The position numbers were made by a program, and so were the translations under genes. DNA of 64,000 nucleotides from an uncultured Chitinophaga sp. (GTDB taxonomy: Bacteria; Bacteroidota; Bacteroidia; Chitinophagales; Chitinophagaceae): the NCBI GenBank assembly GCA_964437415.1, contig CAYTGN010000015.1, positions 1,890-65,889 on the forward strand. The letters run 5' to 3'. This document shows, piece after piece, positions 27,484 to 32,888 of the stretch; position 1 is the stretch's first letter, and every line of letters starts with the position of its first letter. The notes under the pieces are model-generated. The model worked only from the letters and a program-made list of their open reading frames with translations, was not told the DNA's origin and did not search any database.

Positions 27484-30132
27484 ATGAAAATATTGGAGAT
27501 CAAAGTGCTGAAAGGCCCAAACTACTGGAGTGTCCGCCGCCCCAAACTGATACAGATGAAGCTGGACCTTGAAGAAATAGAACAGCGGCCCACGAATACC
27601 ATTCCCGGTTTTCGTGAAAGATTGGAAAAACTGTTTCCCAGTATGTATGAACACCGCTGCAGTGTGGGCAAACCCGGTGGCTTTTTTCAACGGGTGGATG
27701 AAGGCACCTGGATGGGGCATGTGATCGAACACATTGCTCTGGAACTGCAAACCCTTGCAGGCATGGATACCGGTTTTGGCCGCACCCGGACACCAGAAGG
27801 CGAAAAAGAAGGAGTGTATTATGTGGTGTTCAGTTATATGGAAGAAGATGCCGGTCTGTATGCAGCAAAAGCCTCCGTGAAAATTGCAGAGGCTTTGATT
27901 GACGGAACAGAATATGATCTTGCAGAAGATATCCAGCAACTAAGAGTGATCAGGGAAGATACAAGACTCGGGCCTTCCACCGGATGCATTGTGGAAGAAG
28001 CTGCAAAACGGGGCATACCTTTTATAAGACTGAACAAGCAAAGCCTGGTGCAGTTGGGTTATGGAATGAACCAGAAAAGGATAAGAGCCACTATCGCATC
28101 TACTACTAGCAATATCGCCGTTGATATTGCCTGCGACAAAGAAGAAACCAAGCTTTTGCTGGAGGCGGCCGAGATACCTGTGCCAAGAGGAACGGTGATA
28201 AGAACAGAGGCCGGGCTTGATGACGCCATTGAAAAATTTGGTTACCCCCTGGTGATAAAACCGATTGATGGCAACCATGGAAAAGGCAACACTACCAATA
28301 TCACCAACAAGGAACAGGCACTGAGAGCTTTTGCAGCCGCCAAAGAATACAGCCGCAGTGTGATCGTGGAGCGTTTCATCACCGGTTATGATTTCCGCTG
28401 CCTCGTTATTAATTACAAATTCATCTGCGCAGCATTGCGAACACCGGCTTCCGTGGTGGGAGATGGAGTTCACAACATTCAATGGCTGATTGACGAAACC
28501 AACAAAGACCCACGCCGCGGTTATGGTCATGAAAAAGTGCTGACACAAATAACAGTTGACCAGTTCACCCAAAAAATGCTGGATGATATTGGCTACACAC
28601 TGGAGACCATCCCGGCAAAAGATGAAAGAGTATTGCTGAAACCCACAGCGAACCTTTCCACCGGCGGCACATCCACCGATGTAACCGATGAAGTGCATCC
28701 CGCTAATATTTTCATGTTTGAAAGAATCGCAAAGATCATCGGTCTCGACATTTGCGGCATTGATGTAATGGCCTCCGATCTGCGAACACCAGTTGCAGAA
28801 AACGGCGGCGCTATTCTCGAAGTGAATGCAGCGCCGGGATTCCGTATGCACATTGAACCGGCTGAAGGTTTGCCCAGGAATGTGGCCGAACCGGTAGTGG
28901 ATATGCTTTTCCCCAAAGGAACAGCAGGCCGCATACCCATCATTGCTGTTACAGGAACAAATGGTAAAACAACCACCACCAGGCTGACTGCGCATATTGC
29001 AAAAAGTGCCGGTAAAAAAGTCGGTTATACCACCAGTGATGGTGTATATATACAAAACCAACTGATGATGAAAGGCGATTGTACTGGCCCGGTCTCGTCA
29101 GCTTTTGTATTAAAAGATCCCACTGTAGATTTTGCTGTGTTAGAATGTGCACGGGGTGGCATCCTGAAAGCAGGTCTTGCATTTCAGAACAGTGAAGTGG
29201 CTATTGTTACCAATGTAGCTGCCGATCATATGGGGCTGGGTGGTATCCATACCCTTGATGCGATGGCAAAAGTAAAGGCTGTGGTGCCGGAAACGGTTTT
29301 CCCGCATGGCTATGCCGTACTTAATGCGGATGATGACCTTGTTTATAAAATGAAGGATGACCTGAAATGCAATATCGCTTTGTTCAGTATGGACGAGAAC
29401 AATCCCCGCATTAAAGCACATGCAGCTGAAAATGGTTTATCCTGTGTGTATGAAAACGGGTATGTCACCCTGATGAAAGGCAACTGGAAGATAAGAGTGT
29501 TGCCTGCTAAAAGCATCCCCTTGACCTATGAAGCAAAAGCAACACATAATATCAATAACTGTTTACCCGCTGTGCTGGCAACCTACCTGTTCAGGGATAT
29601 TACGATTGAAGACATTCGCACTGGCCTGCAAACATTTATTCCCAGTGAAAGCCTAACACCCGGGCGGTTGAATTTCTTTCATTTCAAAAATTTCACCATG
29701 CTGGCCGACTTTGCCCACAACCCGCATGGTTTGCAGTTGCTTTGTGATTTTGTGAGCAAGCTGGATTATCCTTCGAGAATCGGTGTTATTTCAGGCACCG
29801 GTGACCGGAGAGATGAAGACATCCGTGAACTGGGGGAAATTTCAGCAAAATATTTTGATGAGATCATTATCCGATGTGATAAAAACCTGCGTGGAAGAAC
29901 GGCCGATGAAATCATCGGATTACTGAAAGAAGGTATTGAAAAAATCAATCCTTCTGTTCCGGTGATGACCATTCCAAACGAAGACCAGGCCCTTGATTAT
30001 ATTTATGAAAACCCACGGCATGGCGCTTTGTATACCATCATGTGTGATGTGGTGGCCCGTGCTTTGGATAAAATAAAGGAACTGAAGGAAAGGGAGGAGA
30101 GTGAGGCGAAACCGTTAGCAGTTAGCCATTAG
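27484..30132 (+). CDS. cphA: cyanophycin synthetase
   Basis: 882 aa. The N-terminus (MKILEIKVLKGPNYWS...RPTNTIPGF...GTWMGHVIEHIALELQ) is diagnostic. It is followed by an ATP-grasp domain and a Mur-ligase-like domain (IIAVTGTNGKTTTTRL). Confidence 0.9.
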   Translation: MKILEIKVLKGPNYWSVRRPKLIQMKLDLEEIEQRPTNTIPGFRERLEKLFPSMYEHRCSVGKPGGFFQRVDEGTWMGHVIEHIALELQTLAGMDTGFGRTRTPEGEKEGVYYVVFSYMEEDAGLYAAKASVKIAEALIDGTEYDLAEDIQQLRVIREDTRLGPSTGCIVEEAAKRGIPFIRLNKQSLVQLGYGMNQKRIRATIASTTSNIAVDIACDKEETKLLLEAAEIPVPRGTVIRTEAGLDDAIEKFGYPLVIKPIDGNHGKGNTTNITNKEQALRAFAAAKEYSRSVIVERFITGYDFRCLVINYKFICAALRTPASVVGDGVHNIQWLIDETNKDPRRGYGHEKVLTQITVDQFTQKMLDDIGYTLETIPAKDERVLLKPTANLSTGGTSTDVTDEVHPANIFMFERIAKIIGLDICGIDVMASDLRTPVAENGGAILEVNAAPGFRMHIEPAEGLPRNVAEPVVDMLFPKGTAGRIPIIAVTGTNGKTTTTRLTAHIAKSAGKKVGYTTSDGVYIQNQLMMKGDCTGPVSSAFVLKDPTVDFAVLECARGGILKAGLAFQNSEVAIVTNVAADHMGLGGIHTLDAMAKVKAVVPETVFPHGYAVLNADDDLVYKMKDDLKCNIALFSMDENNPRIKAHAAENGLSCVYENGYVTLMKGNWKIRVLPAKSIPLTYEAKATHNINNCLPAVLATYLFRDITIEDIRTGLQTFIPSESLTPGRLNFFHFKNFTMLADFAHNPHGLQLLCDFVSKLDYPSRIGVISGTGDRRDEDIRELGEISAKYFDEIIIRCDKNLRGRTADEIIGLLKEGIEKINPSVPVMTIPNEDQALDYIYENPRHGALYTIMCDVVARALDKIKELKEREESEAKPLAVSH

Positions 30133-30159
30133 TCAGAAGCCAAAAGGCTTAAAAAACCA

Positions 30160-30191
30160 TTTGGCACAAATCCCGGCAACCCCTATTTTTG
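30160..30191 (+). promoter_or_regulatory. Bacteroidota sigma-A-type promoter for tRNA-Gln (-33 TTTG, -7 TAnnTTTG)
   Basis: TTTG lies at 30160-30163 and TATTTTTG (TAnnTTTG consensus) at 30184-30191, with a 20-nt spacer, about 29 nt upstream of the tRNA 5' end. Confidence 0.55.
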
Positions 30192-30219
30192 CACCCCGTT
30201 CCGAAAGGAATGTTCAGGA

Positions 30220-30290
30220 TGAGCTATGGTGTAACGGTAGCACTACAGATTTTGGTTCTGTCTGTCTAGGTTCGAATCCTAGTAGCTCAA
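30220..30290 (+). tRNA. tRNA-Gln (anticodon UUG), CCA not encoded
   Basis: Hand-folded cloverleaf: acceptor TGAGCTA/TAGCTCA (U1:A72 as in tRNA-Gln), D-arm GTGT-AACGGTA-GCAC, anticodon arm ACAGA-TTTTGGT-TCTGT, 4-nt variable loop, T-arm CTAGG-TTCGAAT-CCTAG, discriminator A. Confidence 0.9.
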
Positions 30291-30294
30291 CGAG

Positions 30295-30319
30295 AGACCT
30301 TATGACAAGGTCTTTTTTT
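30295..30319 (+). terminator. hairpin plus T7 tract between the tRNA-Gln and the GIY-YIG ORF
   Basis: AGACCTT-ATGAC-AAGGTCT followed by TTTTTT. The T-run directly abuts the ATG at 30320. Confidence 0.65.
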
Positions 30320-30565
30320 ATGGTGCATGTTTATGTCATTGAAAGCTTACTGGATAAAACCAGGTACACCGGAATGGCTCTTGATCCGCTAAAACGGCTG
30401 GATGAACATAACAACGGGAAAAACAGATTCACTAAGGGGCACAGACCCTGGAAAATTATCTACACAGAAACTCATTCCGATTGGGCATCTGCAAGGCAAC
30501 GGGAAAAATATTTGAAATCTGCTGCAGGAAAAAAGTGGCTTGTAAAAACACTCAACCACGAATAA
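30320..30565 (+). CDS. mini GIY-YIG (URI-domain, YhbQ/COG2827-like) nuclease family protein
   Basis: 81 codons. Motifs: VHVYVIES (GIY-like), RYTGMA (YIG-like), KRLDEHN, and a conserved YTE...E..LK helix. The 134-aa track ORF (30161..) reads through the tRNA, so the internal ATG at 30320 is preferred. Confidence 0.75.
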   Translation: MVHVYVIESLLDKTRYTGMALDPLKRLDEHNNGKNRFTKGHRPWKIIYTETHSDWASARQREKYLKSAAGKKWLVKTLNHE

Positions 30566-30566
30566 A

Positions 30567-30637
30567 AGATTTTGGTTCTGTCTGTACAGGTTCCCTGCCT
30601 GACTGCGTCACGCAGTCAGGGAATCCTGGTAGCTCAA
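30567..30637 (+). pseudogene. displaced partial copy of tRNA-Gln (anticodon stem-loop to discriminator base) with a 27-nt insert in the T-loop
   Basis: 30567-30585 is identical to 30247-30265 (19/19). Outside the insert, 42/45 positions match tRNA positions 30247-30291. No acceptor 5' strand or D-arm is present upstream. Confidence 0.8.
30594..30620. repeat. 27-nt palindromic insert splitting the T-loop (TTC^GAAT) of the partial tRNA copy
   Basis: CCTG + CCTGACTGCG-TCA-CGCAGTCAGG. The 10-bp arms are perfectly complementary. Confidence 0.8.
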
Positions 30638-30643
30638 CAGATT

Positions 30644-30665
30644 CCCCGCCCCGGCGGGGTTTTTT
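30644..30665 (+). terminator. Rho-independent terminator after the partial tRNA copy
   Basis: CCCCGC-CCCG-GCGGGG followed by TTTTTT. Confidence 0.7.
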
Positions 30666-30733
30666 GTTGACCGGAAAGTGGAATTGCCCGGTTCGGCCCA
30701 TGTTCTTAACTTGGTCATACAAAATCAAAAAAC

Positions 30734-31411
30734 ATGAAACAGTTTTTTTGCCTTGCAATATTGTTTGCAGCTTTTTCAGCAGGTCATACACAACATTGTA
30801 CCGACTTTTTTTTCCTTCAGGATAATAAAACGGTGGAAATGACCAGCTATAATAAAAAAGGAAAGGAAACCGGAAAGATGACCTATGCGGTTTCCAATGT
30901 AACCAAAAGCGGCAGCAGTGTTTCTTCTACCGTTGCTTTTGAATCGTTTGATACAAAAGGAAAATCCACTACCAAAGCCATTAACAATGTGAAATGTACA
31001 GACGGAGTGATGATGATGGACATGAAAATGTTCATTCCTTCTACCCAGCAGGAGCAAATGGGAACGGCGGCTGCTTCAGCAAGTGATATGTACCTGGAAT
31101 ATCCGGCAAACATGAAAGAAGGTGATATGCTTAAGGACGGGCAGTTCAATATGGATTTTAAAATGCAGAACGGAATGGGCGGCAATGTTTCCGTAAGTAT
31201 CACCAACAGGAAAGTGCTGGGCCGTGAATCCGTCACAACAACTGCCGGGACCTGGGACTGCTTTAAAATATCTTATAAAAGCAGGATTGTAATGAAATTA
31301 GTAGTGGGCATTCCCATTAATGTGGAAACAACAGAATGGTATGCACCAGGAATTGGCGTGGTAAAAACAGAAGCTGGCGGTAGCAGAACAGAAATAACTG
31401 CCATTAAATAA
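30734..31411 (+). CDS. secreted hypothetical protein
   Basis: 225 aa with a signal peptide (MKQFFCLAILFAAFSAGHTQ). It is beta-rich and Met/Lys/Thr-rich. I recognised no family. Confidence 0.65.
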   Translation: MKQFFCLAILFAAFSAGHTQHCTDFFFLQDNKTVEMTSYNKKGKETGKMTYAVSNVTKSGSSVSSTVAFESFDTKGKSTTKAINNVKCTDGVMMMDMKMFIPSTQQEQMGTAAASASDMYLEYPANMKEGDMLKDGQFNMDFKMQNGMGGNVSVSITNRKVLGRESVTTTAGTWDCFKISYKSRIVMKLVVGIPINVETTEWYAPGIGVVKTEAGGSRTEITAIK

Positions 31412-31431
31412 AAATGAAAATACTAATTACG

Positions 31432-31460
31432 AAGCACAGCCTACCCGCTGTGCTTTTTTA
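31432..31460 (+). terminator. terminator of the 30734 gene, overlapping the 3' end of convergent rfbD
   Basis: AGCACAGC-CTACCC-GCTGTGCT followed by TTTTTTA. Confidence 0.6.
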
Positions 31461-32331
31461 TTTTTCCCATGCAATGACCAAGACTTTCGTTCCATTTCTT
31501 AAGTATGACACCGAATGTCTGCTGAATTTTTGAGTTGTCCAGCACAGAATAAGCAGGCCGTTTGGCTGCAGTGGGATACGCCGTAGTAAGAACCGGGTTC
31601 ACTTTGCAGTTGCTGCCGGCCAGCTCTTTTATTGCAATAGCAAAATCATACCAACTGATGATGCCATCATTATTGTAATGGTAAATACCGGGAACCCAAT
31701 TTTCAATTGATACTTGGCAATTGGCAATTATATCCAGGATGGCCTTAGCCAAATCGGCAGCATACGTCGGTGAACCGACCTGGTCGTTCACCACGTTGAT
31801 CTCATCCCTTTCCTTCATCAGATGCAGCATTGTCTTCACAAAATTCTTCCCGTATTCCGAATATACCCATGAAGTGCGGATGATGATGGCTTCCGCATTG
31901 AATTCTAATGCCTGTCTTTCTCCTTCCAGTTTTGAAGCGCCGTAAATACTTTGGGGGTTTACGGGTGAATTTTCTTTATAAGGAATAGTTGCTGTTCCAT
32001 CAAAAACGTAATCGGTAGAAATATGAATGAACCGGCAACCATTTTCCCTGCAAACTGCTGCAAGTACTCCCACTGCTTCTGCATTCACCTGGAAAGCAAG
32101 TTCTCTTTCTGTTTCTGCTCTGTCAACAGCCGTGTAAGCTGCACAATTAATGAGGTATTGCGGATGATATGCCCTGAAAGAATTTCTTACCAATTCGAAA
32201 TGATGGATGGGCAGATCCTCTCTTGATAAAAAGACAAAGGCAAATTGCGGATACGCTGATTCAAGCTCCCTCAGTTCTTTTCCCAACTGTCCGTTGGAAC
32301 CAGTTACTAATATCACAGGTTTATCAGTCAT
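31441..32331 (-). CDS. rfbD: dTDP-4-dehydrorhamnose reductase
   Basis: 296 aa. It has VTGSNGQLG and the YGASK (YxxxK) motif with RmlD-like overall pattern. There is a 4-nt overlap with rfbC. Confidence 0.85.
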   Translation of the reverse strand: MTDKPVILVTGSNGQLGKELRELESAYPQFAFVFLSREDLPIHHFELVRNSFRAYHPQYLINCAAYTAVDRAETERELAFQVNAEAVGVLAAVCRENGCRFIHISTDYVFDGTATIPYKENSPVNPQSIYGASKLEGERQALEFNAEAIIIRTSWVYSEYGKNFVKTMLHLMKERDEINVVNDQVGSPTYAADLAKAILDIIANCQVSIENWVPGIYHYNNDGIISWYDFAIAIKELAGSNCKVNPVLTTAYPTAAKRPAYSVLDNSKIQQTFGVILKKWNESLGHCMGKIKKHSG

Positions 32332-32888
32332 CCTTCGAAAAGAAAGCTGTTTCTGCAGTCAGCCAATAAGGGAAGCATTTTATCTTTTTCCGAAATGATC
32401 GCTTTGTCAGCCGGAATTTTCCAATCAATGGCCAACATCGGATCATTATATATAATTCCCCCTTCACTCTCCTTGTTATAAAGAGCATCACATTTATAAA
32501 GAAGTTCAGCTCTTTCACTCAAAACAGAAAAGCCGTGAGCAAACCCTTTTGGTATGAACAACTGCCTTTTATTTTCGGCGGAAAGCTCAATAGCATAATG
32601 TTTACCAAATGTCGGAGAGCCTTTCCGCAGATCAACTGCAACATCCAGAACAGCCCCTGATATTGTTCTTACTAACTTGGACTGAGCATATGGAGGTAAC
32701 TGGTAATGAAGACCCCGTATTACACCAAATAAGGAACTGGATTGATTATCCTGAACAAACTTTAGATCAATCCCTTGCTGTTTAAAGACATCTTCGTTGT
32801 AAGATTCATAAAAATATCCCCTGTCGTCTTCAAAGACTTTGGGTTCAAACACCAGCAATCCGGGAATATCAGTTGTAAAAAAAGGCAT
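32328..32888 (-). CDS. rfbC: dTDP-4-dehydrorhamnose 3,5-epimerase
   Basis: 186 aa. RmlC motifs: FEDDRGYFYESYN, RGLHYQ, PKGFAHGF. Confidence 0.9.
   Translation of the reverse strand: MPFFTTDIPGLLVFEPKVFEDDRGYFYESYNEDVFKQQGIDLKFVQDNQSSSLFGVIRGLHYQLPPYAQSKLVRTISGAVLDVAVDLRKGSPTFGKHYAIELSAENKRQLFIPKGFAHGFSVLSERAELLYKCDALYNKESEGGIIYNDPMLAIDWKIPADKAIISEKDKMLPLLADCRNSFLFEG

Follow-up and report, generated by a model that had tools for sequence, protein, structure and literature searches.

A candidate homing-type cassette of about 0.3 kb at a Chitinophaga tRNA-Gln gene, built from a minimal GIY-YIG gene and a palindrome-split partial tRNA copy

Anatomy and polymorphism of the tRNA-Gln locus

The DNA analysed here is a stretch of 64,000 nucleotides from an uncultured Chitinophaga sp., hereafter called the window. 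It carries an intact tRNA-Gln(UUG) gene followed by an inserted unit of 347 nt, whose boundaries are free to rotate across the ~10 shared nucleotides at the 3' end of the tRNA. The locus spans 30161–30638 plus a displaced terminator, and its features are as follows:

30161–30190, + strand: promoter-like region of the resident tRNA-Gln (TTGGCA-17-TATTTT), containing TATTTTTG
30220–30291, + strand: intact resident tRNA-Gln(UUG) (ARAGORN; Rfam RF00005, 63.4 bits over 30220–30290)
30292–30638, + strand: inserted unit of 347 nt, comprising terminator, ORF and palindrome-bearing partial tRNA copy (delimited against the empty locus L081 and the two units of locus L001)
30292–30319, + strand: element-borne terminator-like hairpin and T-run, abutting the ATG of the ORF
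30320–30565, + strand: GIY-YIG nuclease gene, 81 aa, single domain (81 codons plus TAA; Pfam PF01541)
30567–30593, + strand: inner arm of the partial tRNA-Gln copy (tRNA positions ~27–54; 26/29 identical to the resident tRNA)
30594–30620, + strand: palindrome (HP), CCTGCCTGACTGCGTCACGCAGTCAGG, 27 nt, splitting the T loop at canonical C56|G57
30621–30638, + strand: outer arm of the partial tRNA-Gln copy; direct repeat of 18 nt shared with 30274–30291 (17/18)
30644–30665, + strand: native terminator of the tRNA-Gln locus, CCCCGCCCCGGCGGGG plus T-run, now displaced 3' of the insert

A first-pass annotation had described the tRNA-Gln, the hairpin, the 81-codon ORF and the second, partial tRNA copy, and all four lie where it had placed them. 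Its description of a tRNA-tied cassette with a single ORF and no integrase also holds, the 347-nt unit containing the GIY-YIG ORF alone. The region 30161–30190 is the sole promoter-like match across 30000–30800; we take its TATTTTTG to be a Bacteroidetes-type -7 box, and comparison of the loci showed that its cccctatttttgcacc is conserved in L001 and L081. The same scan of 30000–30800 gave nothing promoter-like between tRNA-Gln and ORF, in agreement with the earlier view that the ORF has no dedicated promoter. As judged from these motifs, 30161–30190 probably serves as the single promoter for both tRNA-Gln and ORF.

The partial tRNA copy (30567–30638) begins one nucleotide past the stop codon of the ORF. 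Its inner arm covers the anticodon stem-loop, the variable loop, the 5' strand of the T stem and the TTC of the T loop, and its outer arm covers the GAAT of the T loop, the 3' strand of the T stem, the 3' acceptor strand and the discriminator +1. Both arms form direct repeats with the resident tRNA: 30247–30273 with 30567–30593 (spacing 320, the first 19 nt being identical) and 30274–30291 with 30621–30638. When the 27-nt insert is left out, 43 of the 47 aligned positions are identical. Reading the sequence confirmed the three differences already named in the annotation, i.e. 30266 (C in the resident tRNA, A in the copy), 30267 (T, C) and 30281 (A, G); at the last two, a T-A pair of the T stem is replaced by a compensatory C-G pair, the T-stem allele of the second copy being a different one. 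When the tRNA was aligned locally with the region that follows the ORF, the score was z=11 against shuffles. This score, together with the recurrence of the same geometry in dozens of independent loci, indicates that the similarity is not due to chance. A search of 29500–31500 with Rfam at permissive thresholds returned the tRNA only, the partial copy and the palindrome being without match. Note that ARAGORN calls the partial copies "tRNA-???", which makes them a source of spurious tRNA calls.

The syntenic site (cphA, tRNA-Gln, DUF3108-like gene) contains no unit in L081, one in the window and two tandem 347-nt units in L001; tandem units also occur in L003, L006, L013, L018 and L073. L081 thus provides an empty orthologous site of the kind that the first-pass annotation had proposed to look for in relatives. 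Its tRNA is present as a single copy, to which the resident tRNA-Gln of the window is identical over the whole length. The native CCCCGCCCCGGCGGGG terminator lies directly 3' of the tRNA in L081 and after the last unit in L001, while the element-borne hairpin (30292–30319), which is unlike the native terminator, is 100% identical in L001. The window and L001 units are 96% identical, with no difference in their first 178 nt, whereas the flanks are only 87% and 79% identical. This shows a recent transfer or conversion of the unit between genomes. In the window and in both L001 units, the variant T-stem allele is found on both sides of the palindrome. Given that the resident tRNA has kept the L081 sequence and that both arms of the partial copy carry the variant allele, the most economical interpretation is an untouched resident tRNA and an insert that starts immediately 3' of it or inside its final ~10 nt. 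L081 could itself have become empty by precise secondary loss, since the more distant L007 is filled.

The GIY-YIG protein and the palindrome

The 81-aa product matches the Pfam GIY-YIG family PF01541 over residues 2–71 (E=1.3e-15, 57.9 bits for a cut-off of 22.6). The AF2 model (pLDDT 96 (96.3)) has the GIY-YIG fold, a three-stranded sheet against which helices pack, with elements in the order E-E-H-E-H-H, and Foldseek matched it to BH0048, Slx1, EF2693 and I-TevI. Structurally, the protein is nearest to BH0048, a UPF0213 protein, and to Slx1, a structure-specific nuclease (TM 0.64–0.70; rmsd 1.6–3.6 for the Slx1 matches). phmmer against the PDB gave 1zg2 (E=1.1e-3) and 1ywl (E=2.9e-3). These matches are weak, and they point at best, at the subfamily level, to a Slx1/UPF0213-like minimal GIY-YIG protein. 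Homologues are labelled "predicted GIY-YIG superfamily endonuclease", presumably the label linked to COG2827, or "putative endonuclease" at JGI. Searches of NCBIfam, PHROGs and PADLOC with the ORF product gave no matches, which rules out a known defence component or a named phage family.

In an alignment of 35 homologues, Y5, Y16, R26 and E62 are invariant. Y5, Y16 and E62 correspond in position to Y6, Y17 and E64 of SsnA, shown to be essential in that protein (PMC11893778). Nuclease activity, along with a cut site, is what we infer for the 81-aa protein. The ORF is under purifying selection, with dN/dS values of 0.02–0.23 in most pairs (full range 0.02–0.43) at saturated dS.

The segment 30594–30620, which the first-pass annotation had set aside as an ignorable 27-nt insert in the T loop, is a conserved palindrome and, by sequence comparison, the most conserved part of the element: pairwise nucleotide identity is 84% for the palindrome, 64% for the ORF and 48% for third codon positions. 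It holds a perfect 11+11 inverted repeat that lengthens the T arm into a long hairpin (DNA fold of -15.3 kcal/mol, z=-3.8). The same palindrome is common to the Chitinophagaceae elements at tRNA-Glu, tRNA-Leu and tRNA-Gln, always at C56|G57. More generally, the palindromes are GC-rich and clade-specific, the hairpin type tracking the protein clade. The repeat arms differ in their match to the resident tRNA: in 18 related loci, the outer 18-nt arm shows 1 mismatch in 324 nt and the inner arm 52 in 360. Taken as sequence conservation, these data show that constraint acts on the ORF, the palindrome and the outer repeat.

Several other origins of the palindrome were considered and rejected. Neither HP nor its core CCTGCC..GGCAGG occurs a second time in the 64-kb window, which argues against a dispersed REP- or NTS-like repeat. 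No matching arm lies across the ORF, the palindrome being present on one side only, so that its arms are not terminal inverted repeats of a larger ORF-containing element. Nor is it a random repair scar, as it is conserved across tRNA hosts, and more so than the ORF.

Recurrence beside tRNA genes and comparison with known systems

The association of this ORF family with tRNA genes and duplicated tRNA parts, proposed from the window alone, was observed in 79/79 homologous genomic loci. An intact tRNA on the same strand lies within 120 nt of the ORF in 62 of the 79; in 7 others it lies at 136–422 nt, separated from the ORF by a further unit or by a decayed one, and the remaining 10 display tRNA ends or partial copies, as judged by eye. 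By comparison, we estimate the chance rate of association at ~0.5%. The occupied tRNA genes, from several bacterial phyla, represent ~20 different anticodons. In most of the 79 loci, a partial tRNA copy scoring z>10 was detected beyond the ORF, on the side away from the intact tRNA, and these copies carry a palindrome at a defined tRNA position.

Two arrangements were found. Type A, to which the window belongs, consists of intact tRNA, terminator, ORF and 3' partial copy; type B consists of 5' partial copy, ORF and intact tRNA. The functional tRNA is never disrupted in either type. Where terminators are not also duplicated, the repeat stops 0–8 nt beyond the tRNA 3' end in type A and 0–5 nt before position 1 in type B. 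The outer repeats measure 18 nt in Chitinophagaceae type A elements versus 9–54 nt in type B, and a target-site duplication of fixed stagger was therefore rejected. The start point of the partial copy ranges from tRNA position 8 to 52 among loci (the second tRNA of L077 is almost complete, with positions 8–76), and a start in the anticodon stem looks like the product of erosion rather than a target. In a rough NJ protein tree built on ~80 residues, close ORFs are found at different tRNAs and types A and B are interleaved. Neighbouring genes differ between loci, many Chitinophagaceae genomes carry a cassette at the same tRNA-Glu locus, and decay is common among the copies, in the form of ORFs cut short, palindromes that have been lost and arrays devoid of ORFs. 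In Hanamia caeni BO-59 (L022), the palindrome of the copy is truncated.

The family comprises 10,368 clusters at 50% identity (E<=1e-3) from Bacteroidota, Patescibacteria, Ignavibacteriota, Chlorobiota, Dehalococcoidia and others. The metagenomic contigs that carry the gene are mostly short, which could be explained by repeat-induced assembly breaks. A search of plasmids found no copies and IMG/VR viral contigs contained no relatives, so these searches point to no transfer vehicle; the 12 phage matches (homologues from Rhizobium phages) are ~41% identical and do not adjoin tRNAs.

Among known systems, phage SegB and the Ssn hairpin nucleases come closest to the cassette, which belongs to neither. 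SegB, a GIY-YIG nuclease with its gene among tRNA genes, cuts inside these genes and drives recombination-dependent tandem amplification of the tRNA-segB unit; it has an enriched motif, RAWTSGAAC, and is reported with a C-terminal region beyond the GIY-YIG domain, of which a 28-aa truncation was described (PMC13096335). By our own reading, this motif is the reverse complement of the T-loop DNA GTTCGAATC, the sequence that the palindrome splits here. The two systems have in common a nuclease gene among or next to tRNA genes and tandem units (in L001 and others), a likeness of behaviour rather than homology. By contrast, the cassette encodes a bare 81-aa domain in cellular chromosomes instead of a phage protein with a C-terminal region, this domain has no PHROGs match and resembles I-TevI-type enzymes at the superfamily level only, and no palindrome-split tRNA copy is reported for SegB loci.

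Ssn-family proteins, 94-aa GIY-YIG nucleases, bind hairpin repeats beside their own genes and cut ssDNA nearby; the authors remark on the IS-like look of the hairpin-gene-hairpin arrangement, and the main text does not mention tRNA (PMC11893778). Like Ssn proteins (cd10448), the cassette protein is a single GIY-YIG domain of ~90 aa (81 aa here) with the same catalytic layout, its gene adjoins a conserved hairpin repeat, and hairpin and protein apparently diversify together. The cassette palindromes differ in being one-sided, embedded in a tRNA copy and not dispersed in the stretch examined, dispersal being judged on the 64-kb window and, for the other genomes, on short stretches.

UPF0213/COG2827 proteins (YhbQ, BH0048, EF2693) and the Slx1 domain are closest in sequence and fold, the cassette protein having no extra domains, and a minimal GIY-YIG form was described for prokaryotic Slx1-like proteins (PMC1564403). 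The similarity is weak, however (E~1e-3, 30% identity, no NCBIfam match). To our knowledge, classical UPF0213 genes are not tRNA-linked. As with phages, ICEs and islands that target tRNA genes, a complete and a partial tRNA bracket the insert, the identity block stops at the tRNA end and a functional tRNA is kept; the cassette nevertheless lacks a tyrosine or serine integrase, measures ~350 bp rather than kilobases, has a partial copy split by a palindrome and exists in 3'-end and 5'-end versions. It resembles IS200/IS605 and REP/RAYT elements in its small size, its hairpin near one end, its lack of classical terminal inverted repeats and an insertion site whose short sequence also ends the element, but has a single hairpin and no HUH (Y1) transposase, GIY-YIG being its sole Pfam match. 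GIY-YIG enzymes are hydrolytic, and we know of no strand-transfer activity among them.

Origin of the cassettes

We favour, with slightly more confidence than doubt, the view that the window holds one copy of a widespread and apparently undescribed class of ~0.3-kb tRNA-end cassettes, of a homing-type selfish nature and possibly partly domesticated. Each would consist of a bare gene for an 80–90-aa GIY-YIG protein of the Slx1/UPF0213 type and a palindrome-split partial copy of the neighbouring tRNA. A full-text search found no publication connecting small GIY-YIG genes with partial tRNA copies, its incomplete coverage making this an absence of evidence only. The starting points of the model are direct observations, namely the anatomy of the unit, its association with tRNA genes and the presence of zero, one or two copies at a single site. 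Low expression of the nuclease would depend on the tRNA promoter, through read-through of the terminator in type A and co-transcription in type B, and the enzyme would break either tRNA-gene DNA or its own palindrome, guided by structure or by a hairpin; host homologous recombination would then use the short tRNA-identical outer arm and the intact tRNA as homology. Such a combination of break and recombination would copy the cassette into cassette-free alleles of the tRNA in question, generate tandem arrays and occasional precise losses, and keep the outer repeat identical to the resident tRNA. Dependence on host recombination is a part of the model that we infer, as is the route into new tRNA species. 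Among the observations that run counter to homing, the putative T-loop target is still intact in the resident tRNA, which would expose it to self-cleavage, and tRNA-specific sequence separates the ORF from the palindrome, yet both reach new tRNA species.

A bolder proposal, which we regard as unlikely, is that no autonomous DNA mobile elements smaller than these cassettes (~0.3 kb) are known and that they move without transposase or integrase. The mini Slx1-like nuclease would recognise single-stranded tRNA-gene DNA folded as a cloverleaf or hairpin and cut it at the base of the acceptor stem, i.e. at the tRNA boundary, and in the T, D or anticodon loop; host repair would join the element at these cuts, with the palindrome, as a super-stable imitation of a tRNA arm, marking where the element ends. 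Such a scheme would account for repeats that end at the mature tRNA boundary, for palindromes at loop positions and for the use of ~20 tRNA species without a DNA-binding domain.

A purely selfish homing gene is expected to decay after fixation. In most orthologous pairs, however, the ORF is about as diverged as its flanks; this, together with saturated synonymous sites and strong purifying selection, indicates that the cassettes have long been vertically resident and that a domesticated gene is no worse a fit than a purely selfish one of the homing type. The nuclease could accordingly be a locus-resident one, once mobile and now kept by the host, the palindrome-bearing copy serving as regulator, decoy or repair template. 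We hold this to be clearly less probable than a homing-type cassette, though the most probable of the rival explanations. Possible uses would be amplification or conversion of tRNA genes, for which SegB and phage tRNA-Tyr set a precedent of useful amplification, or shielding of the 3' end of the tRNA against the integrating elements that favour it as a site. The low dN/dS (0.02–0.23 with saturated dS), the tRNA-Glu locus filled across many Chitinophagaceae genomes and the failure to find plasmid or viral copies also speak for domestication. It is at odds with the differences in presence and copy number between close relatives, the occupation of ~20 tRNA genes, the frequency of decayed copies and a window-L001 unit far younger than its flanks; moreover, neighbouring genes vary by locus, which suggests no evident host benefit. 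It is rather improbable that the unit is an Ssn-type pair, in which a site-specific ssDNA nuclease and its cognate palindrome would cut incoming or replicating hairpin ssDNA, for instance to control transformation, the tRNA link reflecting an ancestral insertion preference. Size and layout are indeed like those of SsnA (94 aa; Y6, Y17, E64 versus Y5, Y16, E62 here), a conserved hairpin adjoins the gene and its type follows the protein clade. Yet the published SRM pattern (HGTCWYN(0-2)YYVSBRHN(0-5)WNVSBRGN(0-2)RNCYNB) fails, with 1 match on both strands of 80 loci, none near the ORF, versus 0–1 in shuffles; the hairpin is one-sided, single in 64 kb and undispersed, 60 of the 86 palindromes of these types in all loci lying within 150 nt of an ORF; and the partial tRNA copy, the near-perfect outer repeat and the tRNA-boundary rule are left unexplained.

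Two further readings came from the first-pass annotation, and neither fared well. It had proposed attL/attR-like integration at the anticodon stem of tRNA-Gln, with the gene restored by the 3' half carried by the cassette and the downstream copy being the displaced original. The unit is bracketed by one full and one partial tRNA as this would require, rotation of the boundaries is compatible with the final structure, and a G-U intermediate would permit an alternative assignment of the alleles. The intact tRNA is nevertheless the empty-site allele throughout, three unit copies carry the variant T-stem allele on both sides of the palindrome, the partial copy starts at widely different tRNA positions among loci, a recombinase is absent and the displaced original would have to gain the same conserved palindrome independently each time, which makes targeting of the anticodon stem very unlikely. 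We give hardly any credence to the alternative of two tandem tRNA-Gln genes, decayed and separated by an unrelated ORF, or of a remnant of an integrase-borne island. Some loci do keep a nearly complete second tRNA, as L077 does, but the empty site has a single tRNA, zero, one or two units occur at one and the same site, the whole unit is tandemly repeated in L001 and is 96% identical between genomes against 79–87% for the flanks, the triad of ORF, tRNA copy and palindrome recurs at many tRNAs in several phyla, and integrase and island sequence are absent.

If the homing-type reading is true, the very common annotation "GIY-YIG nuclease family protein" conceals a cassette resident on tRNA genes that is mobile or was so in the past. 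It would provide a minimal model for persistence and spread by means of a bare nuclease domain, a single hairpin and ~18 nt of homology, and a cellular counterpart of phage SegB, i.e. a route to nuclease-driven amplification or conversion of tRNA genes. The family would also supply more paired nuclease and hairpin specificities, of the kind sought for ssDNA tools in the work on Ssn.

Anatomy of the tRNA-Gln cassette and its empty site

The only tRNA gene that ARAGORN finds in the entire 64-kb window is tRNA-Gln(UUG), and the surroundings described for it in the first-pass annotation (a GIY-YIG ORF followed by a partial second copy of the tRNA) are present in every feature, as judged by ARAGORN, Rfam, PF01541 and repeat searches.

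Features of the cassette and its context in the window
30220-30291, plus strand: tRNA-Gln(UUG) (ARAGORN; Rfam, 63.4 bits)
30292-30319, plus strand: 10-bp hairpin and T-run, directly 3' of the tRNA
30320-30565, plus strand: GIY-YIG ORF of 81 codons, ATG at 30320 (PF01541, E=1.3e-15)
30247-30273 and 30567-30593, plus strand: direct repeat 1, the tRNA restarting at the anticodon stem (repeat search)
30274-30291 and 30621-30638, plus strand: direct repeat 2 (repeat search)
30594-30620, plus strand: palindrome of 27 nt, perfect 11+11, splitting repeats 1 and 2 (repeat search)
27484-30132, 30734-31411 and 31441-32888: context genes, confirmed (cyanophycin synthetase; DUF3108-like; rmlD and rmlC, minus strand)

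The tRNA aligns to the region 3' of the ORF with z=11 against shuffles; the three substitutions listed earlier between the two copies are real, and two of them form a compensated T-stem pair in the sequence. None of the context genes is common to cassettes at other tRNAs. The source record's gene call for the ORF (30374-30565, 63 aa) seemingly begins at Met19, given that protein P0002 is 100% identical over 78% of the 81-aa query; this start would remove the GIY motif, and the conserved start is the ATG at 30320.

The first-pass annotation had called for an empty site in a relative. Metagenomes scanned for the predicted empty junction yielded L081, a locus in which both flanks keep the gene order of the window (cyanophycin synthetase gene upstream, DUF3108-like gene downstream; 88% and 78.5% nucleotide identity). 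Its tRNA-Gln shows no difference from the intact tRNA of the window and is directly followed by the terminator that occupies 30644-30665 there. The window therefore holds 347 extra nucleotides (30292-30638), which comprise a terminator brought by the element, the ORF and the partial copy of the tRNA. In L001, a relative with the same synteny at a similar distance (87% and 79-82%), the 347-nt unit occurs twice in tandem. The unit is self-contained and is found at one site in zero, one or two copies. Between the window and L001 it is 96% identical, its first 178 nt without a difference, while the flanks differ by 13-21%; the unit is thus younger than the host genomes, and on these sequence grounds its recent exchange between them is shown.

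The partial copy carries the T-stem allele CCAGG/CCTGG, the best-paired form, whereas the resident tRNA has CTAGG/CCTAG. Each of the three unit copies (one in the window, two in L001) has the variant allele on either side of its palindrome. This distribution favours a partial copy that moves with the element, with insertion either at the tRNA 3' end or inside its final ~10 nt, and argues against the earlier proposal that the anticodon stem is the target and that the element repairs the tRNA with its own 3' half. That interpretation survives as regards a selfish mini-cassette; its alternative, a decayed tandem tRNA pair, does not.

Association with tRNA genes and the palindrome

A scan of 185,579 species-representative genomes retrieved 79 loci with relatives of the ORF, at identities down to 36%, and the proposed survey of this family against tRNA genes with partial copies revealed an association. 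Indeed, an intact same-strand tRNA lies at most 120 nt from the ORF in 62 of the 79 loci, either upstream, as in the window (type A, 40 loci), or downstream (type B, 22 loci), where it often overlaps the ORF stop codon. In seven further loci the tRNA lies 136-422 nt off, beyond another unit or a decayed one, and the other ten hold tRNA ends or partial copies, by inspection. A partial copy of the neighbouring tRNA is nearly always found on the far side of the ORF, the 3' part in type A and the 5' part in type B. About 20 anticodons are occupied (Glu, Gln (2), Leu (3), Arg (2), Ser (4), Asn, Lys, Ile, Ala, Met, Val, Asp, Thr), in Bacteroidota, many Patescibacteria lineages, Ignavibacteriota, Chlorobiota, Dehalococcoidia and others. 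Contigs with family members in the metagenome match table are mostly shorter than 2 kb.

L002 (2740-3000) yields no call of an intact tRNA-Leu(CAA). There, the 57 nt at the 5' end of the tRNA continue into an ORF remnant of ~47 nt, followed by a palindrome-bearing copy; a deletion may have destroyed the functional tRNA. In L054 (3306-3360), a type B cassette, an extra 3' fragment of tRNA-Gln(CUG) (gaaatcctagtcccgcagc) lies ~35 nt downstream of the intact tRNA.

All reasonably intact partial copies are interrupted by a GC-rich palindrome. In Chitinophagaceae, elements at tRNA-Glu, -Leu and -Gln have one common palindrome, usually of 27 nt, at one common site, C56/G57 of the T loop in canonical numbering (GGTTC/CCTGCCTG..CAGGCAGG/GAATCC), and it turns the T arm into a long hairpin (-15 kcal/mol, DNA fold). 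Palindromes differ by protein clade, with CCCGCCTCG..CGAGGCGGG in Patescibacteria and TCCGCC..GGCGGA in Bacteroidales-type elements, and in other clades they sit in the D loop (GGWTA/GAR), between positions 9 and 10, in the anticodon loop or arm, or in the T loop. There are 86 palindromes of these types across the loci, compared to 0-3 in shuffles, and 60 of the 86 are at most 150 nt from the ORF. Pairwise identity averages 84% for the palindrome, 64% for the ORF and 48% for third codon positions; by this measure the palindrome is under sequence constraint. The ORF and the palindrome are kept apart by tRNA-specific sequence. In ORF versions of 88-90 aa, the frame extends across tRNA positions ~34-55 and into the palindrome, past its 5' arm, to a stop in its loop, so that the conserved tail GDTGSLPA is merely translated tRNA and palindrome.

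The Chitinophagaceae palindrome (30594-30620 in the window, and homologues) is built of 4-nt periods, CCTG CCTG ACTG / CAGT CAGG CAGG; variants have lost or gained one period on either arm, and most are still exactly 27 nt long. A second palindrome with an AT-rich loop is nested inside the first in L007 (3260-3328) and L004 (3258-3325), which implies that palindromes can be added in separate events, and L071 and L051 have at least two within one partial tRNA. In the ORF-less arrays of L030 (2840-3130) and L014 (3160-3299), an intact tRNA-Met is directly preceded by one or two tRNA-Met copies, each with a TCCGCC..GGCGGA palindrome in place of ~10 nt of the anticodon arm (ARAGORN, 'tRNA-???'); these arrays look like type B cassettes minus the ORF.

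Measured where terminators are not also duplicated, the identity of the two tRNA copies ends 0-8 nt past the tRNA 3' end in type A and 0-5 nt before position 1 in type B. The outer arm, the 18 nt that lead from the palindrome to the end of the tRNA, shows 1 mismatch in 324 nt against the resident tRNA (18 loci), while the inner arm, on the ORF side, is decayed (52 mismatches in 360 nt, truncations included). Because many elements look old, the outer repeat must be selected or continually homogenised. ORF divergence is close to flank divergence in most orthologous pairs, the window and L001 being the clear exception, and ORF dN/dS is 0.02-0.23 in most pairs, with synonymous sites often saturated; together, divergence and dN/dS point to long residence with a working protein. 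In a rough protein tree, tRNA species are interleaved, as are types A and B. Tandem arrays, truncated ORFs, lost palindromes and ORF-less tRNA-Met arrays with palindromes are common among the loci.

The GIY-YIG protein and its probable expression

By sequence and predicted fold, this is a GIY-YIG protein of the minimal Slx1/UPF0213-like type. The AF2 model of the 81-aa protein (pLDDT 96) best matches UPF0213 BH0048 and the Slx1 nuclease domain (TM 0.64-0.70), with I-TevI and UvrC far behind; a PDB sequence search returned two UPF0213 proteins (E~1e-3) and nothing else. Y5, Y16, R26 and E62 are invariant in the family alignment. As the 81 residues include no DNA-binding domain, specificity must stem from the catalytic domain, oligomerisation or DNA structure. 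The family comprises 1,635 clusters at E<=1e-10 and 10,368 at E<=1e-3; where sources give a name, it is no more specific than "GIY-YIG nuclease family protein", "predicted GIY-YIG superfamily endonuclease" or "putative endonuclease". Rhizobium phages have a small GIY-YIG gene (~41% identical; L082, phage RHph_TM30, 107038-107298) that neighbours an HNH endonuclease gene in a stretch of ordinary CDSs and has no tRNA close by.

The sole promoter-like site is upstream of the tRNA and includes a TATTTTTG box kept in L001 and L081; there is none between the terminator T-run and the ATG, which abut. Expression of type A ORFs would consequently depend on read-through transcription alone. For type B, joint transcription of partial copy, ORF and tRNA would start from the original promoter. 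At several type B loci the ORF stop is the TAG within GGTAGCTCA of the tRNA. Since the stop lies inside the tRNA, RNase P would remove it during 5' processing and leave a non-stop mRNA, as expected from established tRNA processing. The ORF overlaps the intact tRNA by 10-23 nt in the type B loci L047, L049-L052, L056, L058, L064 and L075, often with the TAG of GGTAGCTCA as stop.

Proposed mobility and known systems

Sequence comparison shows that a short, near-perfect repeat of the tRNA end delimits the unit and that its palindrome and its nuclease gene are both constrained. We propose that the nuclease breaks DNA, directed by DNA structure or by its own palindrome, and that host recombination then works via the tRNA-identical outer arm and the intact tRNA. 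If recombination in the outer arm were of the Campbell type or a double crossover, its product would be exactly the one observed: the former host's terminator would end up behind the resident tRNA and the native one behind the partial copy, the element's T-stem allele would stay in the partial copy, and the identity block would stop at the tRNA boundary. Any crossover inward of the palindrome would destroy the tRNA and go unobserved.

Two published systems make this mechanism plausible. SegB, a phage GIY-YIG homing endonuclease, cleaves inside tRNA genes and brings about a tandem amplification of a tRNA-segB unit that depends on recombination (PMC13096335); its motif RAWTSGAAC is, by our reading, T-loop DNA, the exact sequence that the palindrome splits here. 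The cassette behaves alike, but the two proteins are related no closer than at the superfamily level and the cassette is not phage-borne. Ssn proteins, of the same size, bind a hairpin beside their own gene and cut single-stranded DNA a few nucleotides upstream (PMC11893778). The arrangement of gene and hairpin is similar, but the cassette palindromes fail the published Ssn repeat pattern (SRM) and the criteria of two-sided, dispersed repeats, and the main text of that paper does not mention tRNA (PMC11893778). With integrase-borne tRNA islands the cassette shares the repeat geometry, without an integrase. Full-text literature searches brought up no account of a small GIY-YIG gene with a palindrome-split tRNA copy as its partner.

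Persistence, turnover and decay together are the mix expected of a homing-type element, with real room left for domestication, and there is a realistic chance that these cassettes represent a new mobility mechanism.
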